A stretch of 64,000 nucleotides of DNA. Origin: Eledone cirrhosa (lineage: Eukaryota). Made by a program: the position numbers and the translations under genes. This document shows, piece after piece, positions 1,021-54,622 of this stretch. Position 1 is the first letter of the stretch; each line of letters opens with the position of its first letter. The notes below the pieces were generated by a model that was not told where the DNA came from, searched no databases, and saw only the letters and a program-made list of their open reading frames with translations. The DNA is taken from positions 73,284,001-73,348,000 of the forward strand of contig OZ024745.1 of the NCBI GenBank assembly GCA_964016885.1, in the 5' to 3' direction.

Positions 1021-3010
1021 TAACTTTGAATAACTTTGAAATGTTTTGGCCAGTATTGGCCCAGGCCATGTCTAACTTAATAGCACCACCTGGCGAAGTC
1101 TTTCAATTCAGGATTTGGGCACCATGGCCCATTCGAGAAGAGAATTACTGTTTGCGGAGACATATCCGGGTGTGGGTGGTTTGTCCGGGATTACTTGGAG
1201 GAATTTGTCCAAAGACTTCTTGAATCTTGTGTGGTCAGTTTCTGTTTTGACGTGTCCTGGTGTGATGTTGAAGAGAGCAGGGCCGATTGAGGTGAAATAA
1301 TTGTGCCGTATTGTTGTTATGAGTTGCGATTTAGATTTTTGAATGGGACGGATAGCACGGGGCCCAAGCCTTGGGTGTATCTTGAAGGCGATGCCAACAT
1401 CATTTGGGCAGTGATGATGGAACATTTTCCACATCATGCAGATAATATAACGCTCACGGCGACGTTGGAGTGAGTAAAGTTTCAGGTTTTCCAATCGACC
1501 CCAGTAGTCAAGGTCTGACATGCCATCTATCTTTTTCGTGATTGCCCTTTGAGGAGCTTCAAGTTTCATGATACTTTGTTTCGTGTGGGGAGACCACAGT
1601 GGACAACAGTATTCAAGGTGTGGTCGGGCGAAAGTAGAGAAGAGAAGGATAATGGTGCGGGAATCTCTCGACTGGAAGGTTCTGAGGATCCAGGAACACA
1701 TTCTGCGGGCCATGTCAACTTTGCTGCTTATATGCGTGGTCCAGCTTATGTTGCTGTCCACGGTTACTCCCAAGTCTCTGATGTTGTTAGATGCCACGAG
1801 AGTTTCCCCGGAGGGAAGGGAGTACGGGAGTTTCAGAGCATCCTCTTTTCCAAAGTGGATCAGTTCGAATTTGTCTTCGTTCAGTAACATGTTGTTCTTT
1901 TCTGCCCATTGGGTAACAGCCAGTAGGTCTGACTGAAGGCTTATCCGGTCATCCACGCCATTGATGACCTTTTGGAGCTTGGAATCATCAGCGAAAATTT
2001 TAATGTTGCTGTGTTTGATGATGTCAGTGATGTCATTAATATAGATGATGAAGAGAAGTGGGCCCAACACAGTGCCTTGTGGGACTCCACTACTGACTTT
2101 GGCTGGGCTTGATTTGACTCCCTCAACTACAACATGTTGGGTTCTGTTTGACAGGAAGCTCTTGATCCACTGCAGCAGCTTTCCAGTGACACCAATATTG
2201 GACAGCTTTCTCAGTAGAATGTTATGATCAACCCTGTCAAAGGCCTTGCTGAAATCAAGGTAGATAACATCAGTGTTGGAACCCTCTCCCAAGGCTCTCA
2301 AAATGTCATCAAAGTGATGCAGTAGTTGCGTCAGGCAATCCCTTCCATTACGGAATCCATGCTGGTTGGAGTTCAGCATATTGTTACTCTCAAGGAAGTG
2401 GGTCATTCGCGATCTCACCACTCGCTCAAATACCTTAATGATATGAGAGGTGAGTGAGATTGGACGGTAATTCACGGCAAGGGATTTGTTTCCCTTTTTG
2501 AAAACTGGGACAACAGACTGGGATAGAAGGTTTTCTGGCACATATCCAGCATCCAGTGAGTTCCGCCACAGATTGGCAAGAGGAGAAGCAAGTTGGTGTT
2601 GACACGCCTTCAAGACACAAGCAGGGAACCTATCGGGACCTACTGCTGAATTATGTTTGATTTCCTTTATTGCCGCCAAGACATCAGGGGCGCCAAACGT
2701 TATGTCCGATAAGGTGTAATGGGGAGTAACATCGCCGATACAGCCCAGATCGGCCATATCAGGATTGCTGAAAACAGAGCAGTATTGTTTCTGCAGTATC
2801 TCACCCATGGTTTTAGCATTGTCTTGAAGAGTGCCATTTTCATCAATTAGAGGGCCAACAGTAGAGCCAGTGATTTTGTGTTTTTTTGCAAATGAAAAGA
2901 ACACTTTGGGATTGAGTTTGATCTTCTCAATGGCCCAGGCCTCTTCAGCTCTTCTCTGATTGTTGATGAGGGACATTATGTTGTTTTGGAGGTTATGTTT
3001 TTTAATCTCT
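1021..3010 (-). mobile_element. CR1-like non-LTR retrotransposon, 5'-truncated, both ends in (TA)n
   Basis: RT ORF plus short 3' UTR ending in the tandem tail (ttcaaagtta)x2. Confidence 0.9.
1108..2976 (-). CDS. LINE ORF2 reverse transcriptase domain (CR1-like), lacks endonuclease
   Basis: Motifs [40 protein letters not shown] and the CR1-type RPHLEYC..WSPH. Confidence 0.92.
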
Positions 3011-6505: not shown

Positions 6506-7146
6506 ATGTCAGGTCACCAGTTGGTGCTACTGGTAACATGTATCCCAGTACAACCTGTCTCATGGTCGGGTCGTTGGCGACTAAACTGGCAACCCCACCA
6601 AGGTTTCTTGGTGAGGAGGGTGACTTTGGACATCCTGCAGGACTAAAAACAAAACCTGTCAAAGGGCAAAGGAGCTCTTAAGAGTCAATGGCCATCCAAA
6701 ATCACCGGGAGAGATGACCCCTTTAGCCTTAGTCAAGGCAGAATTCTAGGAGAAGGAAAACTCTGATATAACACCTGCAACCCTGATGGTATCCAATGAT
6801 GTTGACTTGTTCTTCTTTTTGGTAAATAGCATCTTGGTTAAGAGAGTGGGACTGGCTTTGTGCAGTGCCTTTGCTCACTATAAAAGCTTCACGGCACAGG
6901 CATTGCTTTATATCTGGAGATCTCTCTGCACTTGTCCTCACATGAGCCCAGCACTATGTGTCAATAATTGTCCTACCATGGGCCTAGCACTATGTGTCAA
7001 TAATTGTCACAGGTGTAGTGTTTGTACCAGAGGTTTCAAGTCGCTGGCTGGACTAAAAAGTCACACTCGTTCAGCGCTTCGGTAGGGGTTATCCTACATG
7101 GATGTAAAGTAGTGGCCGTACTCGAAAACGAGTTGGCAGCCACCAT
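6506..7146 (+). repeat. ~640-bp interspersed repeat, copy 3
   Basis: Appears identical to 1-547 over the overlap, including the following microsatellite interruption pattern. Confidence 0.8.
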
Positions 7147-7398
7147 ATGTATGTATATATGTATATATATGTATGTATATATATATATATATGTATGTAT
7201 ATATATGTATATATATATATGTATATATATGTATATATATGTATGTATATATATGTATATATATGTATATATGTATATATATATATATATGTATATATAT
7301 GTATATATATATGTATATATATGTATATATATGTATATATATGTATGTATATGTATGTATATATATGTATATGTATGTATATGTATATATATGTATAT

Positions 7399-8400
7399 AA
7401 ACAATTTAAACCATCCACTCTCGCCTCAACATTTTTGCTTAATGTCCAAGGCATCAGCCCTTCCACCAATACTCAAAAATGGAAGATCAAATTCCTGGAG
7501 CACTGGGTTGATGTCCATCCAAACCACATCCCTTTCTTCGTCCTCAGTGAAACCCATCTCAGTAACCTCCACTTGGAAGCCGAGGTGAAAGTGAAAAATT
7601 TCAAAGCCATCTGTGCTGATCGCGCTGGCAGAAGAAAGGGTGGGACTGCCATTTATGTCCATAATTCTTTCTCAACAGAGGCTATGAACATATTTACTAA
7701 TGGATACTGCGAAGCAGTCACTGTATTCAGTCAAACCAACAACCTAATAGTAGTTGGGCTCTATAGGCCACCCCAAACGCCTCTACCATGCTTCAAGGAA
7801 TGCCTCAACAGCGTAAAGTGTTTCATCCAAGAGTGTCACCCTGACAACATCTTAATGATGGGGGACTTCAAACTCCCCGGATTTGACTGGTCCACAAACA
7901 GCCTGCCACCAGGTTCTTCTGCCTCAACCTCTGACAGGGAAGCAGTGGAATCGCTTCTTGACTTCATGGATGATTTCTTCCTGTCCCAACTGGTGCTCGA
8001 ACCATTGAGGTGCCACAAAAACGTCCTAGACTTAATTTTCAGCAATCACACTGACAATATCCACAATATTGCAGTGGAGAAAACTCTACTCTCTGATCAT
8101 GACATGGTTCTCTGTGATCTGAGATTCCACCGTCCAATATACAAACCCAATGTCATCTCTCCCGTCCATCCATTTGACGCTATGGATTTCCACAATGCAA
8201 ACTGGGAAGCGATCAGTCATGATCTTGCACATGTCGACTGGTCCTTCACGCACACTCATACACCCACTAACATCAAAAAGTCCTGGCAGACATTTGTGGA
8301 CACTGTTACAAACATATGTGCAAAACACACCCCATTAAGAACTATAAACAAATCTAAGAGCAGAATCCCTAGAAATAGAAAAACGCTCATCAGGAAGACA
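7399..8400 (+). pseudogene. APE-type endonuclease domain of LINE ORF2
   Basis: Motifs LSETHL, GGTAIYV, LYRPP, MGDF, LDLIFS, SDH. Confidence 0.88.
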
Positions 8401-8491
8401 AATACTGAACGAAGACAAATTCGAACTGATCCACTTTGGAAAAGAGGATGCTCTGAAACTCCAGTACTCCCTTCCCTCCGGGGAAACTCTC

Positions 8492-9181
8492 GTGGCATCT
8501 AACAACATCAGAGACTTGGGAGTAACCGTGGACAGCAACATAAGCTGGACCACGCATATAAGCAGCAAAGTTGACATGGCCCGCAAAATGTGTTCCTGGA
8601 TCCTCAGAACCTTCCAGTCGAGAGATTCCCGCACCATTATCCTTCTCTTCTCTACTTTCGCCCGACCACACCTTGAATACTGTTGTCCACTGTGGTCTCC
8701 CCACACGAAACAAAGTATCATGAAACTTGAAGCTCCTCAAAGGGCAATCACGAAAAAGATAGATGGCATGTCAGACCTTGACTACTGGGGTCGATTAGAA
8801 AACCTGAAACTTGACTCACTCCAACGTCGCCGTGAGCGTTATATTATCTGCATGATGTGGAAAATGTTCCATCATCACTGCCCAAATGATGTTGGCATCG
8901 CCTTCAAGATACACCCAATGCTTGGGCCCCGTGATATCCGTCCCATTCAAAAATCCAAATCGCAACTCATAACAACAATAGGGCACAATTATTTCACCTC
9001 AATCGGCCCTGCTCTCTTCAACATCACACCAGGACACGTCAAAACAGAAACTGACCACACAAAATTCAAGAAGTCTTTGGACAAATTCCTCCAAGTAATC
9101 CCGGACAAACCACCCACACCCGGATATGTCTCCGCAAACAGTAATTCTCTTCTCGAATGGGCCATGGTGCCCAAATCCTGA
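8492..9181 (+). pseudogene. C-terminal part of CR1-like ORF2
   Basis: Nearly identical to the last ~230 aa of 1108-2976. Confidence 0.88.
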
Positions 9182-13883: not shown

Positions 13884-16089
13884 CATCATCATCATCATCA
13901 TCATCAACGTTTAACGTCCGTGTTCCACGCTTGCATGGGTTTGGACGGGGGTAGTCCCACTTGAGGCAAGAGTGATTGTCTTGCTCGCATAGGACTGTCT
14001 GGCAGGTTTTCTACAGTTGGATGCCCTTCCTAACACCAACCACATTTACAGTGTGGGTCTGGGAGGTTTTTACCGTGTTGCCTACACGGCCACATTACAG
14101 CGTGGACTGTGTGTTTTTTTGTCGTGACACCTACACGATCTCATTTGTTTCGGCCTCGATGGCGCGGCACCAACATAACTTTACATAGAACGGGGTGGTG
14201 TGGATCGGGTGGGGGTGGTGGTGGTGGGACGGGGTGTATTTTGTTAGAGATGCCTACTGGCTGGAGTAGGTTTTACTATATATTTAGGTAAGGCGGGTCT
14301 TCTCTGTTACTGAGTACCGCCAAAGGTCTCGGTCCAGTGACATTGTCTTGGAGAGGTGTAAGTGTGTGATGTCGGAGTTTATCAGCTCGTCCCAGGTTTT
14401 TCTAGGTCTGCCTATTCCGTGACTACCGTCTATCTTTATTGCCCTGCACTTTGTTATACAGCTATCGACTTTCATGCGCATCACGTGTCCATACCAACGT
14501 AGCCTTCTCTCGAGTAAACAACATCTGATCCCTCTTATCTCTAATTTTTTCCTTAGTTCGTTTATGCTTTGCCGTTCACGTATATTACTGTTACACATCC
14601 AGCGGAGTATGCAAGCTTCGTTCCTCTCTAGTCTGCGTATATCCTCTGCACACAATGCCCAGGTCTCACTGCCATGCAGCATTGCTGTTCGTATGCAGGC
14701 ATCGTACAACCTGCCTTTCATTTTTAGTGAGAACCCTTTAGCAGCTAATAGTGGTATAAGCTCTCTGAACTTTTTCCAACCAGTTCTGACTCTAGCTACA
14801 GTACTTTCAGAGCACCCTCCCCCACTGCTGATTTTATCGCCCAGGTAACGGAAGCTGTCCACTATTTCTATAGAACCCTCTGCGCAATTGAAAGAGCTAG
14901 TAGTTTGTGGGCACTTGCTGCTACTTATTGCACCAGAGCACCGGCCACATGTAAAATCTATGTTCTTAGTTAGCTTACCTGTGATCCCACTACATCTTTT
15001 ATGCACCCATACTTTGCATTTAGGACATAAAATGGAGTTTCTACCTACGCCTTTCCTACACACCGAGCACGACCATTTCCCAGAAGGGACCGCCGCCTTG
15101 TTTTCTTTCCTACAAACTAGTACTTTGGTCTTAGCCAGGTTAATTTTAAGTCCTTTTGACTCTAGGCCGTGCTTCCATGTTTGGAATTTCTTCTCTAGCT
15201 CGGCCATTGATTCCGCTATGAGTGTCAGGTCGTCTGCGTATAGGAGTTCCCATGGGCAGCCTGTCTTGAACTCCTCTGTTATAGCCTGAAGGGCAATAAT
15301 AAATAGTAGTGGACTGAGAACAGAGCCCTGATGGACGCCAACTTTTACGCTAAACTCTTCACTATATTCGTTGTTAATTCTAACCTTGCTGACTGTTTCT
15401 TTATACATGGCTTGTATAGCCCTCACAAGCCATTCGTCAACGCCTAGTTTTCTAAGAGCCCACCAGATAATGGAGCGGGGGACTCTGTCGAAGGCTTTCT
15501 CCAAGTCGACAAAAGCTAAGTAGAGGGGTTTACCTTTAGCTAGGTACTTCTCCTGTAGTTGTCGTACTATGAAAAGAGCGTCTGTGGTACTTTTGCCTGA
15601 CACAAACCCGAACTGCATTTCATCTAGGTCAATTCTCTCTCTGATTAGTTGCGCTATTACTCTTTCCGTGACCTTCATGACCTGGTCGATTAATTTAATG
15701 CCTCTATAGTTACTCCTATCTAGGGCGTCTCCTTTACCCTTATAACAGTTAACGATGATGCTGCTATGCCAGTCCTTCGGAACAACCCCATTCTGTACGA
15801 CTTGGTTAACTATGCGGGTGACCATGGTGTGTCCCACCGTGCCAGATGCCTTCAGCATCTCAGCAACTATTTCCGAAGGCCCAGCCGCCTTACCCGTCTT
15901 CATATCCTTGATTGCCTTACTTATTATACTCCCCTCGACTAACACTGCTGGTCCCTCTATTGGGTCGATATGGGGGAGACTGCCTTTCTCCCAATTATTC
16001 TCCTCATTTAGAAGCCTTTCATAGTGACACTTCCAAGCTACCTTCTTATCAGCGTCGGTGATGGCAAGTGTGCCATCGTCGTTTAGTAC
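13884..16089 (-). mobile_element. RTE-clade LINE, 5'-truncated at (TA)n, with 3' UTR and (ATG)n tail
   Basis: RT ORF; 3' UTR ending ...ggacgttaaacgtt(gat)n. Confidence 0.9.
14284..16089 (-). CDS. RTE reverse transcriptase with embedded PHD-like zinc finger (N-terminus lost)
   Basis: [39 protein letters not shown]...VHKRC...[20 protein letters not shown]. The upstream 16090-17007 part of the predicted ORF is microsatellite. Confidence 0.9.
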
Positions 16090-27109: not shown

Positions 27110-28900
27110 TGGAAATGATCCAAGAACTCCGTACAGTATATCTCCCTATAAACGAAAGAATACACCCACCAAAGATAAAAATCAATAGTAAAATAGTAAT
27201 AACTACAAAAAATGTTAACATGGCCAACAAAGACTTAATTAGCACAAACGCAAACATTAGTATCGCAAGGCTAAATAAGATAATATATGCAGCAGCCACA
27301 GTTGTTACAAAAGAAAGTGGGTACTTCCTTAGATCTACAAAAACACGAATAACAAAACCCTCACAAGCATGGAAATCAAAGACACAAAAGAATTTAGAAC
27401 ATAAAAGAAAAAAAATCCACAAATCTTTAATGAAAAGTGTAGAAAATGAAAACATTAAAAAAATATATTACATAAAAGGAAATCACCGAATCTAAGAAAT
27501 GCCTAAAACATCAAATATTTGCAAATGTACAAAGAATCCAGAGATATGAAAAGTGCCAATAATTTTTGAACAAAACCAACAATTTCAATCCAAGCCAAAA
27601 CGATTCTACCAAGAACTTAATAGAAACAAAATAGAGGTAAATATAACCCCAAAGTAAAAGAAGTGGAAGAGTACAGAGTAGGGATGGTAGACAACAGAGG
27701 AATACTCATGTACATGAATAATTAGAACAACAAACACAACCTCTGAAGAACTATGGAAAGACATCACAACAGAAGATGTGTTTAACTCACTGAAAACAGA
27801 AAGCAACTGGAAAATGCCAGGACATGCCAAAATACCAAACTTCTGGATGAAATATTTAACAGGGACAGATAGTGTACTTTCAAAAAAGTTTAATGAGATA
27901 TTGTTGGTGCTAGAAATGACACTCGATTAGCTTACTATATAAAAAAAAAACACCCTGGTCCTCAGAAATAATGACACATTAACCCCAAAACTACAGCCCC
28001 AAAACATGCCCTTCTACAACCAAGTCTTTCTACAAGACTCTAACTGTAATACCATCACAGACACTGACCAAGCACGTGGAAAACCAACTTGTTTCCAGAA
28101 AAGTAGAAACGATGAGCTCATCCCAATTTACAGAGGGATATTGCAAGAGGACTACCTTTCTCCATTCCTTTTCTGCCTAGCACTGACAACATTATTTGAG
28201 ATAATAAGCAGGATTGGACTTGGTTATAAATGCTATAATACGAAAATTAACTATCTTCTGTATATGGATGATCTAAAGCTGTACGCTATAGATGAGACAC
28301 AACTTGAAACTCTGCTAAAGAATGTGCATGGATTCACAATAGAAATAATCATGACAATTGGATTAGAAAAATCTGCCAAGGCAACACTGAAGAGAGGAAA
28401 TATAGTGAATGTTTCTTATATCATGCTAGGTAAAGAAACTGAGATAAGGGAATTAGATGAAATACAGACATTCAAATACTTAGAAATCAATGAGCTAGAC
28501 GGGTTTTAACATACACAGATGGATTAAAGATTAGACAGGAATATTATAGACGGATTAAATTACTACATAAGACAGAACTAAATGCAAAGAATAAGGTAAT
28601 AGGCTACAGTTTTAACATTCTGAACTGGACACTAAAAGAACTAACAGGGCTAGACAGAAAAACAAGAAAAACAATAACTGCATTTAGAATACACCACCCA
28701 AAATCAGATGTAGAAAGAATATACCTACCACCAACACAAGGAGAAAGAAGTCTTATGCAACTAGAAAACTATTATAAAATTACCACTGTAGGACTACAAA
28801 AATAACTAAGAATAATGGAAAGTTAATACAAATGAAACATGAAGAAATAAAAATAAAATTGTTATCTATCTTCAAGGAATCCAACAAATTACTAAAGATA
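27110..28900 (+). pseudogene. Degenerate R4/Dong-like non-LTR RT
   Basis: RGILQEDYLSPFLFCLAL, LLYMDDLKLYA, GLEKSAK, FKYLEI; many stops and frameshifts; preceded by (AAT)n. Confidence 0.65.
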
Positions 28901-35695: not shown

Positions 35696-35731
35696 TTTTT
35701 TTTTAATATATATTTTTTTATATATATATAT

Positions 35732-35763
<32 letters not shown>

Positions 35764-35995
35764 ATATATATAATTAAGTTAAAAAAAAATTACATCTACA
35801 TATGCATACTGAAATACTAGTGTGTATATGAATACACACACGTATACATATGTATATGTAACAAGTCTTTCACTGGTTGCTTTACTGTGAGCACCCAGCT
35901 ATTCTGTATGTAAACAGACAGACAAACCGGTTTTTAGAGTCATACTGGTTTTTGAGGGAACACCTTCCCTCTATTCTCTAGAAAGCCAGACAAGG

Positions 35996-36040
35996 AATAT
36001 TGAACTAGTTTCGTTGTTGTTACAACTCATCAGCAATATT
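35996..36040 (-). ncRNA. Minimal type I HHR (representative of 3 reverse array copies)
   Basis: aatattg CTGATGA gttgt aaca acaac GAAA ctag TT caatatt. Confidence 0.88.
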
Positions 36041-37306
36041 TACCTATCTACCGGCCTTTCTGGAGAATTGTAAAAGCACATATCGTTATATGCTTTTTCC
36101 ATGAAAATTAGTAGTGGGCAGACTAATTTGCATAGAGTGTGAGTACGCACCGGTTCAGCGGAGACGATAAAAACAAATGACGAAACGAAATTAAATTTCG
36201 TTTCGTTTGTAACTCACTTTTGTATGACTGACGCTTAAACAATTAAGTTTAAAAAAAAAATTACATCTACATATGCATACTGAAATACTAGTGTGTATAT
36301 GAATACACACACGTATACATATGTATATGTAACAAGTCTTTCACTGGTTGCTTTACTGTGAGCACCCAGCTATTCTGTATGTAAACACACAGACAAACCG
36401 GTTTTTAGAGTCATACTGGTTTTTGAGGGAACACCTTCCCTCTATTCTTCAGAAAGCCAGACAAGGAATATTGAATTAGTTTCGTTGTTGTTACAACTCA
36501 TCAGCAATATTTACCTATCTACCGGCCTTTCTGGAGAATTGTAAAAGCACATATCGTTATATGCTTTTTCTATGAAAATTAGTAGTGGGCAGACTAATTT
36601 GCATAGAGTGTGAGTACGCACCGGTTCAGCGGAGACGATAAAAACAAATGACGAAACGAAATTAAATTTCGTTTCGTTTGTAACTCACTTTTGTATGATT
36701 GACGCTTAAACAATTAAGTTAAAAAAAATTACATCTACATATGCATACTGAAATACTAGTGTGTATATGAATACACACACGTATACATATGTATATGTAA
36801 CAAGTCTTTCACTGGTTGCTTTACTGTGAGCACCCAGCTATTCTGTATGTAAACACACAGACAAACCGGTTTTTAGAGTCATACTGGTTTTTGAGGGAAC
36901 ACCTTCCCTCTATTCTCCAGAAAGCCAGACAAGGAATATTGAACTAGTTTCGTTGTTGTTACAACTCATCAGCAATATTTACCTATCTACCGGCCTTTCT
37001 GGAGAATTGTAAAAGCACATATCGTTATATGCTTTTTCTATGAAAATTAGTAGTGGATAGGTAAATATTGCTGATGTAGATGTAATTTTTTTTTTTTAAC
37101 TTAATTGTTTAAGCGTCAGTCATACAAAAGTGAGTTACAAACGAAACGAAATTTAATTTCGTTTCGTCATTTGTTTTTATCGTCTCCGCTGAACCGGTGC
37201 GTACTCACACTCTATGCAAATTAATCTGCCCACTACTAATTTTCATAGAAAAAGCATATAACGATATGTGCTTTTACAATTCTCCAGAAAGGCCGGTAGA
37301 TAGGTA

Positions 37307-37351
37307 AATATTGCTGATGAGTTGTAACAACAACGAAACTAGTTCAATATT
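37307..37351 (+). ncRNA. Minimal type I HHR (representative of 11 forward array copies)
   Basis: 7-bp stem I, intact core, 5-bp stem II with G10.1-C11.1, palindromic AACTAGTT stem III, GUU cleavage triplet. Confidence 0.9.
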
Positions 37352-40300
37352 CCTTGTCTGGCTTTCTGAAGAATAGAGGGAAGGTGTTCCCTCAAAATCC
37401 AGTATGACTCTAAAAACCGGTTTGTCTGTGTGTTTACATACAGAATAGCTGGGTGCTCACAGTAAAGCAACCAGTGAAAGACTTGTTACATATACATATG
37501 TATACGTGTGTGTATTCATATACACACTAGTATTTCAGTATGCATATGTAGATGTAATTTTTTTTTTTAACTTAATTGTTTAAGCGTCAGTCATACAAAA
37601 GTGAGTTACAAACGAAACGAAATTTAATTTCGTTTCGTCATTTTTATCGTCTCCGCTGAACCGGTGCGTACTCACACTCTATGCAAATTAGTCTGCCCAC
37701 TACTAATTTTCATGGAAAAAGCATATAACGATATGTGCTTTTACAATTCTCCAGAAAGGCCGGTAGATAGGTAAATATTGCTGATGAGTTGTAACAACAA
37801 CGAAACTAGTTCAATATTCCTTGTCTGGCTTTCTAGAGAATAGAGGGAAGGTGTTCCCTCAAAAACCAGTATGACTCTAAAAACCGGTTTGTCTGTGTGT
37901 TTACATACAGAATAGCTGGGTGCTCACAGTAAAGCAAACAGTGAAAGACTTGTTACATATACATATGTATACGTGTGTGTATTCATATACACACTAGTAT
38001 TTCAGTATGCATATGTAGATGTAATTTTTTTTTTAACTTAATTGTTTAAGCGTCAGTCATACAAAAGTGAGTTACAAACGAAACGAAATTTAATTTCGTT
38101 TCGTCATTTGTTTTTATCGTCTCCGCTGAACCGGTGCGTACTCACACTCTATGCAAATTAGTCTGCCCACTACTAATTTTCATAGAAAAAGCATATAACG
38201 ATATGTGCTTTTACAATTCTCCAGAAAGGCCGGTAGATAGGTAAATATTGCTGATGAGTTGTAACAACAACGAAACTAGTTCAATATTCCTTGTCTGGTT
38301 TTCTGGAGAATAGAGGGAAGGTGTTCCCTCAAAAACCAGTATGACTCTAAAAACCGGTTTGTCTGTGTGTTTACATACAGAATAGCTGGGTGCTCACAGT
38401 AAAGCAACCAGTGAAAGACTTGTTACATATACATATGTATACGTGTGTGTATTCATATACACACTAGTATTTCAGTATGCATATGTAGATGTAATTTTTT
38501 TTTTAACTTAATTGTTTAAGCGTCAGTCATACAAAAGTGAGTTACAAACGAAACGAAATTTAATTTCGTTTCGTCATTTGTTTTTATCGTCTCCGCTGAA
38601 CCGGTGCGTACTCACACTCTATGCAAATTAGTCTGCCCACTACTAATTTTCATAGAAAAAGCATATAACGATATGTGCTTTTACAATTCTCCAGAAAGGC
38701 CGGTAGATAGGTAAATATTGCTGATGAGTTGTAACAACAACGAAACTAGTTCAATATTCCTTGTCTGGCTTTCTGGAGAATAGAGGGAAGGTGTTCCCTC
38801 AAAAACCAGTATGACTCTAAAAACCGGTTTGTCTGTGTGTTTACATACAGAATAGCTGGGTGCTCACAGTAAAGCAACCAGTGAAAGACTTGTTACATAT
38901 ACATATGTATACGTGTGTGTATTCATATACACACTAGTATTTCAGTATTCATATGTAGATGTAATTTTTTTTTCTAACTTAATTGTTTAAGCGTCAGTCA
39001 TACAAAAGTGAGTTACAAACGAAACGAAATTTAATTTCGTTTCGTCATTTGTTTTTATCGTCTCCGCTGAACCGGTGCGTACTCACACTCTATGCAAATT
39101 AGTCTGCCCACTACTAATTTTCATAGAAAAAGCATATAACGATATGTGCTTTTACAATTCTCCAGAAAGGCCGGTAGATAGGTAAATATTGCTGATGAGT
39201 TGTAACAACAACGAAACTAGTTCAATATTCCTTGTCTGGCTTTCTGGAGAATAGAGGGAAGGTGTTCCCTCAAAAACCAGTATGACTCTAAAAACCGGTT
39301 TGTCTGTGTGTTTACATACAGAATAGCTGGGTGCTCACAGTAAAGCAACCAGTGAAAGACTTATTACATGTACATATGTATACGTGTGTGTATTCATATA
39401 CACACTAGTATTTCAGTATGCATATGTAGATGTAATTTTTTTTAATTTTTTTTTGACTTAATTGTTTAAGCGTCAGTCATACAAAAGTGAGTTACAAACG
39501 AAACGAAATTTAATTTCGTTTCGTCATTTGTTTTTATCGTCTCCGCTGAACCGGTGCGTACTCACCCTCTATGCAAATTAGTCTGCCCACTACTAATTTT
39601 CATAGAAAAAGCATATAACGATATGTGCTTTTACAATTCTCCAGAAAGGCCGGTAGATAGGTAAATATTGCTGATGAGTTGTAACAACAACGAAACTAGT
39701 TCAATATTCCTTGTCTGGCTTTCTGGAGAATAGAGGGAAGGTGTTCCCTCAAAAACCAGTATGACTCTAAAAACCGGTTTGTCTGTGTGTTTACATACAG
39801 AGTAGCTGGGTGCTCACAGTAAAGCAACCAGTGAAAGACTTGTTACATATACATATGTATACGTGTGTGTATTCATATACACACTAGTATTTCAGTATGC
39901 ATATGTAGATGTAATTTTTTTAACTTAATTGTTTAAGCGTCAGTCATACAAAAGTGAGTTACAAACGAAACGAAATTTAATTTCGTTTCGTCATTTGTTT
40001 TTATCGTCTCCGCTGAACCGGTGCGTACTCACACTCTATGCAAATTATTCTGCCCACTACTAATTTTCATAGAAAAAGCATATAACGATATGTGCTTTTA
40101 CAATTCTCCAGAAAGGCCGGTAGATAGGTAAATATTGCTGATGAGTTGTAACAACAACGAAACTAGTTCAATATTCCTTGTCTGGCTTTCTAGAGAATAG
40201 AGGGAAGGTGTTCCCTCAAAAACCAGTATGACTCTAAAAACCGGTTTGTCTGTGTGTTTACATACAGAATAGCTGGGTGCTCACAGTAAAGCAACCAGTG

Positions 40301-42344
40301 AAAGACTTGTTACATATACATATGTATACGTGTGTGTATTCATATACACACTAGTATTTCAGTATGCATATGTAGATGTAATTTTTTTTTTTAACTTAAT
40401 TGTTTAAGCGTCAGTCATACAAAAGTGAGTTACAAACGAAACGAAATTTAATTTCGTTTCGTCATCTGTTTTTATCGTCTCCGCTGAACCGGTGCGTACT
40501 CACACTCTATGCAAATTAGTCTGCCCACTACTAATTTTCATAGAAAAAGCATATAACGATATGTGCTTTTACAATTCTCCAGAAAGGCCGGTAGATAGGT
40601 AAATATTGCTGATGAGTTGTAACAACAACGAAACTAGTTCAATATTCCTTGTCTGGCTTTCTGGAGAATAGAGGGAAGGTGTTCCCTCAAAAACCAGTAT
40701 GACTCTAAAAACCGGTTTGTCTGTGTGTTTACATACAGAATAGCTGGGTGCTCACAGTAAAGCAACCAGTGAAAGACTTGTTACATATACATATGTATAC
40801 GTGTGTGTATTCATATACACACTAGTATTTCAGTATGCATATGTAGATGTAATTTTTTTTTTAACTTAATTGTTTAAGCGTCAGTCATACAAAAGTGAGT
40901 TACAAACGAAACGAAATTTAATTTCGTTTCGTCATTTGTTTTTATCGTCTCCGCTGAACCGGTGCGTACTCACACTCTATGCAAATTAGTCTGCCACTAC
41001 TAATTTTCATAGAAAAAGCATATAACGATATGTGCTTTTACAATTCTCCAGAAAGGCCGGTAGATAGGTAAATATTGCTGATGAGTTGTAACAACAACGA
41101 AACTAGTTCAATATTCCTTGTCTGGCTTTCTGGAGAATAGAGGGAAGGTGTTCCCTCAAAAACCAGTATGACTCTAAAAACCGGTTTGTCTGTGTGTTTA
41201 CATACAGAATGGCTGGGTGCTCACAGTAAAGCAACCAGTGAAAGACTTGTTACATATACATATGTATACGTGTGTGTATTCATATACACACTAGTATTTC
41301 AGTATGCATATGTAGATGTAATTTTTTTTTTAAAACTTAATTGTTTAAGCGTCAGTCATACAAAAGTGAGTTACAAACGAAACGAAATTTAATTTCGTTT
41401 CGTCATTTGTTTTTATCGTCTCCGCTGAACCGGTGCGTACTCACACTCTATGCAAATTAGTCTGCCCACTACTAATTTTCATAGAAAAAGCATATAACGA
41501 TATGTGCTTTTACAATTCTCCAGAAAGGCCGGTAGATAGGTAAATATTGCTGATGAGTTGTAACAACAACGAAACTAGTTCAATATTCCTTGTCTGGCTT
41601 TCTGGAGAATAGAGGGAAGGTGTTCCCTCAAAAACCAGTATGACTCTAAAAACCGGTTTGTCTGTGTGTTTACATACAGAATAGCTGGGTGCTCACAGTA
41701 AAGCAACCAGTGAAAGACTTGTTACATGTACATATATATACGTGTGTGTATTCATATACACACTAGTATTTCAGTATGCATATGTAGATGTAATTTTTTT
41801 AACTTAATTGTTTAAGCGTCAGTCATACAAAAGTGAGTTACAAACGAAACGAAATTTAATTTCGTTTCGTCATTTGTTTTTATCGTCTCCGCTGAACCGG
41901 TGCGTACTCACACTCTATGCAAATTATTCTGCCCACTACTAATTTTCATAGAAAAAGCATATAACGATATGTGCTTTTACAATTCTCCAGAAAGGCCGGT
42001 AGATAGGTAAATATTGCTGATGAGTTGTAACAACAACGAAACTAGTTCAATATTCCTTGTCTGACTTTCTGGAGAATAGAGGGAAGGTGTTCCCTCAAAA
42101 ACCAGTATGACTCTAAAAACCGGTTTGTCTGTGTGTTTACATACAGAATAGCTGGGTGCTCACAGTAAAGCAACCAGTGAAAGACTTGTTACATATACAT
42201 ATGTATACGTGTGTGTATTCATATACACACTAGTATTTCAGTATGCATATGTAGATGTTATTTTTTAAAACTTAATTGTTTAAGCGTCAGTCATACAAAA
42301 GTGAGTTACAAACGAAACGAAATTTAATTTCGTTTCGTCATTTG

Positions 42345-42413
<69 letters not shown>

Positions 42414-45552: not shown

Positions 45553-45620
45553 AAAACCTGTTCCCAAACAGACCTATTATATTAAATCTTTGTTGGTTTT
45601 TTTCATTAAGCAAATATCAT

Positions 45621-46402
45621 TATTTCTGAGTGGCAGTGAATTGGCAGTATCGGTAGAGGGTCTGACGCCATGCTTTCCAGCAAAGTTACGTCCCTTTACG
45701 GTCTGAGTTCAAATCCGGCCGAGGTTAACTTTGCCTTTCATCCTTACGGGGTCGATAAAATAAAGTACCAGTAATGTACTGGGTAATTGCTGGCCTTGTG
45801 CCTAAAATAGAAACAATTATTTCTGAGTGGCAGTGGATTGGCAGTATCGGTAGAGGGTCGGACGCCATGGTTTGATGCATAGAGTTACGGCCCTTGCCAT
45901 TCTGAGTTCAAATCCCGCCGGGGTTAACTTTGCCTTTCATCCTTACGGGGTCGATAAAATAAAGTACCAGTAATAAACTGGGCAATTGCTGGCCTTGTGC
46001 CAAAAGTAGAAACAATTATTTCTGAGTGGCAGTATCGGTAGAGGGTCGGACGCCATGCTTTGACGTATAGAGTTACAGCCCTTGCCATTCTTAGTTCAAA
46101 TCCCGCCGAGGTTAACTTTGCTTTTCATCCTTACGGGGTCGATAAAATAAAGTACCAGTAATGTACTGGGTAATGTACTGGCCTTGTGCCAATAGTAGAA
46201 ACAATTATTTGTGAGTGAATTGGCAGTATCGGTAGAGGGTCGGATATGCTTTCTAGCATAGTTATGTCTTTTTATGATCTGATTTCAAATCCCGTCGAGG
46301 TTAACTTTGCCTTTCATCCATACGGGGTCGATAAAATAAAGTACCAGTAATGTACTGAGTAATTGCTGGCCTTGTGCCAAAAGTAGAAACAATTATTTCT
46401 GA
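45621..46402 (+). mobile_element. Head-to-tail tetramer of a ~195-bp tRNA-SINE (Deu/Nin-like core)
   Basis: Four units, each with tggcagtatcggtag (A-box-like), a gttcaaatcc-type B box and the core ttcatccttacggggtcgataaa. Confidence 0.8.
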
Positions 46403-50721: not shown

Positions 50722-50752
<31 letters not shown>

Positions 50753-50753
<1 letters not shown>

Positions 50754-51342
50754 TATAAAAGAAAAACGAACACAGACATACACATATATGTGTTCAAATC
50801 TTAAGGGACCGGATTCGCTAAGGTGAAAAGAATACTAACTATAGACAATTGGGTTTGCTTGTCTCAATTTAAGAAAAAATCAATAAAATAAAATAAATAC
50901 AAACCGGAATTGTGGTAACTACCAATCACCCAGACAACTTGTTGTTTCGCAATGTTAATTGTGAATATTGTCGAGTAAACCTGGCTGCTTTTTTTAGTGG
51001 TGTGGGTTTGTGAGATACGCTAGGCAGCCATGTGCGCTATTTGATATATAGCACACTATTTCTTAATATACTTAGAAGTGTCTAGGATACTAATTCATCA
51101 CCCACTGATGAGCTTGAATTGGTAATTCTATTCACAATTAACATTGCGAAACAACAAGTTGTCTGGGTGATTGGTAGTTACCACAAATCCGGTTTGTATT
51201 TATATTATTTTTTTAATATTTTCTTAAATTGAGACAAGCAAACCCAATTGTCTATAGTTAGTATTCTTTTCACCTTAGCGAATCCGGTCCCCTACGATTT
51301 GAACACATATATGTGTATGTCTGTGTTCGTTTTTCTTTTATA
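50753..51342. mobile_element. Non-coding fold-back HHR element
   Basis: ~50753-50967 is the reverse complement of ~51129-51342. Confidence 0.78.
51097..51171 (+). ncRNA. Type I hammerhead ribozyme
   Basis: atcaccca CTGATGA gc..gc GAAA caac aa gttg TC tgggtgat; GUC triplet. Confidence 0.8.
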
Positions 51343-51434
51343 ATCTATTATAATATACGGCTCGGAAATATCTCTTTCTTAGAGCTATTTTGTTGTAAGA
51401 GACTATTTTGAGTTCATAACTCAATACATACCTT

Positions 51435-51707: not shown

Positions 51708-51771
<64 letters not shown>

Positions 51772-51887
51772 TAAGAGGAATTCCAACTTTGTCTGATTTA
51801 CTCGTTTTATTTACAATCCTTTAAAATATATATAATATGGTATTATAATGAAATAGTATGATAGAATATTAAATTCTAAGTGTTAAT

Positions 51888-51926
51888 TGAACAAGTACTT
51901 TCATGCTTTCGCAATCTTCAGGTTCA
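51888..51926 (-). ncRNA. Minimal type I HHR (inverted pLTR)
   Basis: Reverse complement of 54398-54436. Confidence 0.78.
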
Positions 51927-52538
51927 TGATATGTGGTGACAGTCGAGTTTGCAATTTTCAACTGTAATGAGATGGGTAAATTTACTACCTTTTATACATT
52001 TTATACAGAGAAAAGTGGCTCCAGAATGCAAAGCCCTGTAAACTGTATTTCGACAAATCAGTGTGTAGTTTCACTGAATTACTACAGCTGATTGGTTTAA
52101 GCGCCACGGCTGGTTGAGCATGCTAACGACCAATAGTCATACCCAACGTATCAATTGTTTTGCTTTTTGAAATGATGAAAATAGCATTTTCTATTAATCA
52201 TCACCATCAACATCACTTTTATTATTATTATTATTGTTGTTGTTGTTGTTGTTGTTGTTGTTAGTGGTCGTGGTCATAGTGGTAGTAGAAGTAATACCCC
52301 TAGGCGTTATTATTGTTCATTTAGCTTGGGTTTGAATTTATCAATAAAATTCTTTTCTTTGATTTTTCTCTTGATTTCACTTGGGCTGTGTAATTTGTAG
52401 AATGGGAATATTATAAATATTCCCTGACCACATGTTGCCAGGTGGCCGCTTAGGGCTATCTGACGGACATTTGGGTCTCTGATTTGTTGACGGTGTACCC
52501 GTGCACGTTCCGATAGTGCATTTCCAGTTGACATTATT

Positions 52539-54014
52539 TTGAAACCACTATGTATTCACATACCCAGTTTCATCCGGGATGATATCGACTTCCTGTCCCA
52601 TCTTCCCAAAACCACGGAAACGAATTCACTTCTACTCAGTTTTGATGTGGTAAGCCTTTACACCAACATTACACATGATTTAGGAATAAAGGCGGTTAAA
52701 TACTGGGTGGAAAAACATAGAGAAGTGATTCCCATTAGATTCACAGCGCCATTTATATTAGACGCAGTTAAACTTATTCTGGAAAACAACACTTTCTTCT
52801 TCAATGGAAAGAATTACATCCAAATTAGAGGCACAGCGATGGGAACGAAGTTTGCTCCCGTTTACGCGAACTCTGTAATGGGATACTTAGAACAACAACT
52901 CTACGAAGAAATAGAGGAAAAATATAGTACTGACTTTAGAAAGTACATTGAAAAATCTTGGAAGAGATACCTTGACGACTGTTTCATCATCTGGACAGAA
53001 TCTCTAGATACTCTGGATGAGTTCAATATCCTCCTGAATAACCTACACCCATCTCTCCAATTCACAAAAGAGATGAGTAGGACCAAATTACCATTCCTAG
53101 ATATAATGATAATCAAAAACGACACCACCATTACCACGGATATATATTTTAAACACACAGACACCCATCAATATCTGAATTTTAAGTCATGCCATCCACC
53201 TCATACAAAACGCAACATCCCATACTGCCTAGCCAGAAGAATTTGTACCATTGTAGAAGATACGAATACCAGGTACAAACGCCTAACAGAACTAAGAGAA
53301 TTTTTGCTCAAACAAAAATACCCATCTCTACTTATAGAAAATGGCATACAGCGGGCTATAAAAATACCTATACAACAACTTAGAACAAACCAAGGAAGAA
53401 GAAACCAAGAACTGGTCATACCATTTATAATGACACACAACCCATGTCACCAGAATATCTTCAACACTGCCAAAGCAAACCTACCGATCATTGCTCAAAG
53501 TAATGAATTAAAAGGCTTAATCACAGATCGATCTTTGACTCTTAGTAAAAGACAGCCAAAAAATTTGAAGCAATTGCTAACAAAAGTAAAGTTTGACATT
53601 AACAACAAAGACCAATCATTTACTGTATCTAAATGCAATGATAATCGATGCGGCACATGTCAATCCATACACGCCGGTCAATATATGAAAACAAAAACTG
53701 GAAAAATATTCCCAAATGCAAATATGAACTGCAAAAGCAGAAATCTAATTTACTGCATTAAATGCCCGAATTGTGAAGAACTATATGTCGGTCAAACTGG
53801 AAATGCACTATCGGAACGTGCACGGGTACACCGTCAACAAATCAGAGACCCAAATGTCCGTCAGATAGCCCTAAGCGGCCACCTGGCAACATGTTGTCAG
53901 GGAATATTTATAATATTCCCATTCTACAAATTACACAGCCCAAGTGAAATCAAGAGAAAAATCAAAGAAAAGAATTTTATTGATAAATTCAAACCCAAGC
54001 TAAATGAACAATAA
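52539..54014 (+). CDS. PLE reverse transcriptase + GIY-YIG endonuclease (N-truncated, otherwise open)
   Basis: SFDVVSLYTNI, GTAMG, RYLDD, LPFLD, CHPPHTK, CNDNRCGTC, LIYCIKC..C..LYVGQT..R...H. Confidence 0.9.
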   Translation: MKPLCIHIPSFIRDDIDFLSHLPKTTETNSLLLSFDVVSLYTNITHDLGIKAVKYWVEKHREVIPIRFTAPFILDAVKLILENNTFFFNGKNYIQIRGTAMGTKFAPVYANSVMGYLEQQLYEEIEEKYSTDFRKYIEKSWKRYLDDCFIIWTESLDTLDEFNILLNNLHPSLQFTKEMSRTKLPFLDIMIIKNDTTITTDIYFKHTDTHQYLNFKSCHPPHTKRNIPYCLARRICTIVEDTNTRYKRLTELREFLLKQKYPSLLIENGIQRAIKIPIQQLRTNQGRRNQELVIPFIMTHNPCHQNIFNTAKANLPIIAQSNELKGLITDRSLTLSKRQPKNLKQLLTKVKFDINNKDQSFTVSKCNDNRCGTCQSIHAGQYMKTKTGKIFPNANMNCKSRNLIYCIKCPNCEELYVGQTGNALSERARVHRQQIRDPNVRQIALSGHLATCCQGIFIIFPFYKLHSPSEIKRKIKEKNFIDKFKPKLNEQ

Positions 54015-54397
54015 TAACGCCTAGGGGTATTACTTCTACTACCACTATGACCACGACCACTAACAACAACAACAACAACAACAACAATAATAATAATAAT
54101 AATAAAAGTGATGTTGATGGTGATGATTAATAGAAAATGCTATTTTCATCATTTCAAAAAGCAAAACAATTGATACGTTGGGTATGACTATTGGTCGTTA
54201 GCATGCTCAACCAGCCGTGGCGCTTAAACCAATCAGCTGTAGTAATTCAGTGAAACTACACACAGATTGGTCGAAATACAGTTTACAGGGCTTTGCATTC
54301 TGGAGCCACTTTTCTCTGTATAAAATGTATAAAAGGTAGTAAATTTACCCATCTCATTACAGTTGAAAATTGCAAACTCGACTGTCACCACATATCA

Positions 54398-54436
54398 TGA
54401 ACCTGAAGATTGCGAAAGCATGAAAGTACTTGTTCA
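54398..54436 (+). ncRNA. Minimal type I HHR (3' pLTR)
   Basis: tgaac CTGAAGA t tgc gaaa gca t GAAA gtac TT gttca. Confidence 0.8.
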
Positions 54437-54622
54437 ATTAACACTTAGAATTTAATATTCTATCATACTATTTCATTATAATACCATATTATATATATTT
54501 TAAAGGATTGTAAATAAAACGAGTAAATCAGACAAAGTTGGAATTCCTCTTATTAATATAATCTTCTATACACAATCATACACACCCGTGTATATTTACC
54601 TATCTATATCTATATCTATCTA

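Follow-up and report, generated by a model that had tools for sequence, protein, structure and literature searches.

Two fixed start sites, one per DNA strand, at the outer ends of inverted hammerhead retrozyme-like arrays in Eledone cirrhosa

In a 64,000-nt stretch of the Eledone cirrhosa genome (hereafter the window), an inverted array of a non-coding unit of ~470 nt is flanked by two (TA)n tracts. The two unlike ends of this array are two fixed start sites, one per DNA strand, and not random points on a circle. The insertion footprint is the 'tail on one end' signature known from Penelope elements; the feature flagged in an earlier note on this DNA is thus itself a known signature, and it suggests that retrozyme repeats are inserted whole by a Penelope enzyme. 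We consider it likely that the array is one retrozyme insertion made in trans by a Penelope-like reverse transcriptase (RT)/GIY-YIG protein, through twin priming on one uncut RNA.

Anatomy and identity of the window array

Unit positions are numbered from the first base 3' of the hammerhead cut (u1), with window 38282-38751 as the reference unit. The two arms meet 5'-to-5' via a 17-nt patch, which overlaps them by 1 nt and 3 nt and probably represents a template-switch patch (Table 1). In the hammerhead sense, both outer ends are 3' ends that run into (TA)n, as the earlier note had observed, at u232 (site A) and u304-306 (site B). Its estimate of ~70 nt between them also holds, the spacing being 74 nt on the 470-nt unit, and both lie well away from the cut site, as it stated. 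The A-to-B stretch, hereafter the tail, is among the best-conserved parts of the unit. The further claim that each end falls at a TA stands for the right end, which overlaps the microsatellite by TAT, and fails for the left end, where the overlap is a single T. Since the unit reads ...AACTTAATT-G at this position and thus continues with G, the final 'a' read there belongs to the microsatellite. An end would fall on A or T at 303 of the 470 unit positions, and the overlap of 1-3 nt with (TA)n is, taken alone, near chance. The end positions, unlike the overlap length, are far from chance and recur genome-wide. Any target duplication at the window locus is obscured by the pure TA flanks. Elsewhere in the window, fragments of LINE-type RT or endonuclease occur at 1108-3000, 7108-8499, 14287-16089, and 27943-28506, several of them bordered by long TA-rich tracts, and positions 45619-46402 hold four tandem 188-nt units, which may resemble an octopus SINE.

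Table 1 Positions of the array, its parts and the comparator element in the window.
Feature	Position	Strand	Remarks
Left (TA)n target flank	35706..35771	none	
Left arm	35772..37056	- (hammerhead sense)	2.7 units; 5' end u356; 3' end u232 (site A); without tail
Minimal type I hammerhead, outermost left unit	35996..36040	-	
Junction patch between the two 5' ends	37057..37073	+	Short copy of u425-445
Right arm	37074..42351	+	11.2 units; 5' end u202; 3' end u304-306 (site B); tail-bearing
First right-arm hammerhead	37307..37351	+	Predicted cut after 37344; palindromic stem III
Tail (A-to-B stretch)	42278..42351	+	Right arm only; contains 12-bp hairpin
Right (TA)n target flank	42349..42409	none	First 3 nt common to the arm
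Comparator, outside the array: 5'-truncated autonomous Penelope-like element	51767..54615	+	Boundaries approximate; in (TA)n

The window contains 14 hammerhead cores; one minimal type I hammerhead, its stem III palindromic, is present in every unit. Besides the outermost one, the left-arm cores begin at 36504 and 36972, and the 11 cores of the right arm extend from 37314 to 42017. Since the array gave no Rfam match at the gathering score, the hammerhead assignment rests on the motif and on covariation, stem II being altered on both sides in a subfamily of 86% identity. Genome-wide, 5052 exact matches to the core were found (3.0-Gb genome). The units in the window are 467-479 nt long with a GC content of about 35%, and the array has no coding frame of at least 150 aa; lacking RT and GIY-YIG endonuclease, it can be classed as non-autonomous only. 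The best explanation of these sequence features is that the array belongs to the animal non-LTR retrozyme type, a non-coding hammerhead tandem element, with predicted self-cleavage. The predicted cleavage triplet at u467-470 is GUU in the window subfamily and GUC in a distant subfamily. A GUU triplet may cut more weakly than GUC, and the window subfamily may therefore cleave more weakly. In two more samples, one of them a second organism, assembled read contigs contain the unit and also show units joined head to tail. The breaks in reduced-representation reads on the unit were mainly at TTAA words; they would be restriction-site ends, which makes such reads uninformative on the element ends.

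According to the available text of PMC7229834 and bioRxiv 10.64898/2026.07.22.740005, animal non-LTR retrozymes are likewise non-coding, low-GC, tandem elements with a type I hammerhead per unit, and they share with the present family thousands of copies and target duplications of more than 4 nt. The 470-nt unit is marginally longer than the range of 150-450 nt given there, and its hammerhead is of the minimal kind, unlike those of the retrozymes compared in these sources.

Outer ends, arm pairing and target duplications

Outer ends were mapped at 68 loci in two sets, both picked independently of their ends: the 40 loci of top similarity among 741 candidates, with the window as one of them, and 28 loci drawn in positional order from the exact core matches in the first 56 Mb of contig C1. 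End classes in these sets and in the larger arm set below were called by hand from alignments. Throughout, duplicates (L099, L100, L155) were left out, L096/097, L106/107 and L141/176 were merged to one locus each, second arms of 8-11 nt (L055, L067, L073) were scored as single-arm, and L069 was scored as off-site. The outer 3' end lay at A (u231-238) or B (u302-307) in 109 of 117 cases, and in 47 of 50 in the position-ordered set alone; the other eight of the 117 were off-site. Forward-strand junction matches across the genome numbered 1067 for B, 566 for A and 2 for a control at u386, which is among the three longest TA homologies of the unit. Since the A junction pattern is narrower than the B pattern, 566 and 1067 do not form a ratio; reverse-strand counts, inflated by overlapping matches, were left out. 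The tally and the junction counts together establish that the ends are fixed and not permuted. The flanks of A and B ends are AT-rich or microsatellite targets. A literature search, with most subscription papers outside its coverage, found no published mapping of retrozyme ends.

The earlier note had instead explained the ends by cDNA priming at internal TA microhomologies of a circular or multimeric RNA, with permuted end points as the expectation for a circle, and had proposed mapping the termini across copies as a check. That mapping gives two fixed sites and no scatter. Each unit contains 46 TA dinucleotides, yet the longest TA homologies (5 nt, at u150, u178, and u386) are almost unused as ends, and a 4.2-kb coding Penelope-like element shows the same two-site pattern (see below). 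The internal, (TA)n-flanked position of the ends does agree with priming at TA, and since a few off-site ends fall at long TA homologies (L046 at u178, L095 at u206), a minor route of this kind may exist. As the main route, any-TA priming is refuted by the end tally, and we regard this account of the array as very unlikely. It is exceedingly improbable that the left arm is an assembly chimera: A and B ends recur in this arrangement at dozens of independent loci, each with flanks and a duplication of its own, and the window junction falls short of a perfect fold-back palindrome. The window finding is real and not an artefact.

Two inverted arms were found at 49 of the 68 loci. Forty of these pair A with B, one pairs B with B, none pairs A with A, and eight have an off-site end (mixed versus same-site pairing, p = 4e-11). 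Twenty further loci chosen by their A end comprised 17 A+B insertions, two single-arm insertions and one composite of two subfamilies (L190, in which subfamilies of 86% and 96% identity are fused at the tail hairpin), and 20 stretches chosen by their B end contained no B+B insertion. A single arm only was seen at 19 of the 68 loci at the threshold used, and several seemingly single-arm loci conceal an opposite arm of 8-17 nt that ends at the other site. Where both arms can be read, the insertions follow a near-absolute rule of one of each site. The extent of the arms varies among loci from 0.1 to over 20 units.

A scan of 53 two-arm stretches yielded 12 with a flank repeat other than pure TA, and 10 of them were accepted. 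The target duplications in these 10 loci measure 10-17 nt (12 nt in five), and element and duplication overlap by 1-5 nt at 19 of 20 ends. From the geometry of the duplications, both target strands probably served as primers. The inverted arms, the duplications and the short overlaps all bear out the earlier proposal that, after a cut in (TA)n, each of the two strands primed cDNA at internal sites. At L103, where the target is not TA, element and duplication share 4 and 5 nt, and the L071 element reaches u307 exactly where the target supplies a matching G; these two loci indicate that the short pairing is real and only fine-tunes the start. The best explanation is that microhomology tunes the start within the A or B range and does not select the range.

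The RNA template

In the mechanism that we propose, the protein, probably a dimer, would bind the hairpin that separates A from B on the RNA and nick (TA)n in a staggered fashion. The two target strands would prime on one unit of a single uncut RNA, which may be a circle or a multimer, one of them at B and the other at A. Each cDNA would grow to between 0.1 and over 20 units before a random drop-off, and microhomology or a short patch would then connect the two 5'-to-5'. The A-B hairpin has a z of about -3.3 against 200 shuffles, and the inner 5' ends are scattered uniformly over the unit (p = 0.43). Recurrent 5' stops were observed at u321 (L036, L044, L056), u423 (L051, L052, L092), and u219 (L059, L088, L095, L182), the last of which sits on a short palindrome; such stops may be induced by structure, or they may mark a transcript start.

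The most economical reading, which has moderate support, is that one RNA is engaged at both sites. Five B arms consist of the tail alone (58-69 nt), and 5' ends at u237-250, just behind A, occur in nine of 99 B arms versus one of 81 A arms (Fisher p = 0.024). Among 56 two-arm loci, seven were informative for locus-polymorphic variants common to both arms. Counted from the outer ends, five of the seven are in register; the window locus is offset by nine units, and L143 is not registrable. The chance of five in-register cases is about 1 in 60 by rough arithmetic; gene conversion between arms could mimic a shared register, and both the register and the tail-stop evidence come from few loci and were noticed after the fact. 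A rival reading retains the two fixed sites and lets each strand copy a different RNA held by the same complex. It would accommodate the out-of-register window locus, L059, whose arms come from different subfamilies, and L096, where a variant is restricted to the A arm. However, the in-register variants and the tail-only B arms that stop just behind A argue against it, and 55 of the 56 two-arm loci show no multi-site difference between their arms, despite coexisting subfamilies of 86-99% identity. We consider two RNAs rather unlikely.

The inverted arm could also result from a single priming at B followed by fold-back self-priming, with endonuclease resolution removing one tail; fold-back and endonuclease-resolution models are described in the available text of PMC3846280 and PMC8557442. 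Such a route would account for one tail per insertion and for identical arms, and short palindromes occur at some junctions (L059, L088, L092, L095). On the other hand, arm lengths and 5' positions are unrelated, and A arms often greatly exceed their B arms in length (L034; L106/107; L176/141, with over 20 versus 0.7 units). The A arm is therefore not a copy of the B cDNA. The A ends, moreover, overlap the target duplication by 1-5 nt in nine of 10 loci. The frequent excess length of the A arm disfavours fold-back, which seems to us quite unlikely.

For twin priming on one uncut RNA, the form of the template can be narrowed down. The hammerhead cut site is crossed by 149 of 180 complete arms, and seven of the 180, one of them an alignment edge, start within 5 nt of it (about four expected). 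A pile-up of 5' ends at the cut was rejected (one of 118 in the 68-locus set; uniform, p = 0.43). Since the arms cross the cut and no 5' pile-up occurs, a linear monomer cut by the hammerhead can have been the template only if the enzyme jumps repeatedly; here the earlier note was right.

The chance that the template is a circle is about even. The earlier note had taken the ends as a sign of a circle; since the 4.2-kb coding element has the same two-site pattern and linear RNA is used in vitro (PMC11167929), the ends say nothing on circularity. Circles are favoured by arrays that are identical over 20-28 pieces in both arms, by period-2 and period-3 variant patterns (L050, L102, L096), and by B arms that stop behind A after whole laps (L053, L060, L063, L194). 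The argument that a private haplotype proves a monomer circle is weakened by the L082 haplotype, which occurs at seven places without further fixed differences, five of them holding 6-25 units, so that a homogeneous donor array is possible. At L159, only the outermost unit carries two variants, which requires a template made up of several different units. Both points, like the finding that uncut RNA is the main substrate in vitro (PMC11167929), weigh against circles or are neutral. A more specific model, which we hold tentatively and rate somewhat short of an even chance, places an RT dimer on one hammerhead RNA circle (monomer, dimer or trimer) with its fixed sites bridged by the hairpin; both subunits would roll with strand displacement, on opposite strands.

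The array-fixed rare variants of the L031-L102 haplotypes, which are not phylogenetically independent, show an excess of A>G in the RNA sense (14 versus 3 T>C, p = 0.007), and singletons comprise 11 A>G versus 18 T>C. In another sample (run X23), a genomic read family at window 38307-38353 carries an A>G cluster within 50 nt, in reads from one or two start places. The A>G changes suggest that edited RNA was reverse-transcribed, and the excess is a further hint at the circle model above.

Short insertions might alternatively have been expanded into arrays later by unequal crossover at the DNA level, so that array length would not stem from reverse transcription, a model found in the available text of bioRxiv 10.64898/2026.07.22.740005. 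Older arrays are heterogeneous and some have irregular higher-order patterns (window, L036, L176), as this model would have it, but long arrays are base-identical over both inverted arms (L060, L082, L106/107), and the young haplotype at seven places holds 6-25 units at five of them. Crossover also leaves the ends unexplained. We judge it highly improbable as the source of the arrays; it could act on top of the main model.

Penelope-like elements and known systems

The autonomous Penelope-like element in the window (Table 1) contains an RT and GIY-YIG frame at 52491-54014 and a hammerhead near 54398-54437. Its inverted left arm lacks a tail of ~55 nt that the right arm carries. The family has a tandem unit of 4202 nt, which includes a minimal hammerhead of its own in its 3' region, and the ends of its copies fall at two sites (A' and B') about 55 nt apart; the two-arm loci are A'+B' in 10 of 10 cases (the window and nine of 10 fetched loci, the tenth being single-arm). 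The family is abundant and young, with many intact copies of a 775-aa RT/GIY-YIG frame, which is overlapped by an upstream open frame of 476 codons. A cysteine motif precedes GIY-YIG, as described for Neptune/Nematis in the available text of PMC8557442. Comparison with this one family, among others in the genome, yielded no autonomous partner whose terminal repeat is homologous to the retrozyme, a point against the proposed mechanism. Retrozyme and comparator family share only short antisense words, the longest of which, 15 nt, is not colinear; this length was reached by none of 200 shuffles. Antisense initiation at this word, shared with the tail end of the comparator, was rejected, with one genome-wide match. 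Penelope-like frames near six retrozyme loci were likewise rejected as partners, since they look like neighbours or nested insertions (two inspected). Another, canonical-looking hammerhead motif lies in the flank of an autonomous copy (L121:719-790). A second small inverted element at window 50751-51343, with 216-nt arms of 97% identity next to (TA)n and a hammerhead-like core near 51106, is probably another non-autonomous Penelope-type family.

LINE-1 twin priming has primers from both target strands copy a single RNA and leaves an inversion inside a target duplication. Unlike in LINE-1, the second site here is fixed and not opportunistic, and the cDNAs usually overlap over whole units. Penelope-like insertions, as portrayed in the available text of PMC3846280 and PMC8557442, likewise combine a 5'-truncated inverted arm, a one-ended tail, a target duplication and microsatellite targets. 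Their tail of 30-40 bp is often at one end only, and the build-up of inverted, tailed insertions is described as still undefined in the available text of PMC8557442. Compared with these insertions, the present ones have no coding frame, arms that can reach 20 or more short units, and a near-absolute tail asymmetry (40 to 1); their tail of ~70 nt is longer than the usual 30-40, which counts against the assignment.

A close parallel to the two sites is Poseidon of Anolis, where the sequence separating two RT start sites makes up the tail and a dimer is predicted (Frangieh et al. 2024, PMC11167929). In that study, RT was shown in vitro to start internally at both sites on linear RNA. The arrays resemble Poseidon in the two internal starts that bound the tail, in the extension of both target strands and in the dispensability of hammerhead cleavage (PMC11167929). 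The available text of the same paper reports no start-site difference between top and bottom strands in vitro and describes the priming as non-homologous, whereas one of each site per insertion and overlaps of 1-5 nt are seen here. Unlike those of Poseidon, the starts here lie in U-rich stretches beside the hairpin.

The link between retrozymes and Penelope-like elements rests on co-occurrence and phylogeny in the available text of PMC7229834 and bioRxiv 10.64898/2026.07.22.740005; the word 'tail' is absent from the searched text of the latter (Li et al. 2026) and 'inverted' from that of the former (Cervera and de la Pena 2020). The present arrays add a direct Penelope-type insertion footprint on retrozymes, beyond co-occurrence and phylogeny. 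Well over a thousand insertions with two fixed start sites constitute a large natural data set, and the substrate is defined, with 470 nt, two mapped sites, a ~12-nt duplication and intact Penelope-like proteins in the same genome, so that single-RNA twin priming and the choice between circle and multimer become testable. If the rolling model is true, a single RNA, sometimes A-to-I-edited, would give rise to each inverted array in one step, as a two-armed rolling-circle cDNA, and the model would unite the Penelope tail, the inversion and the retrozyme arrays.
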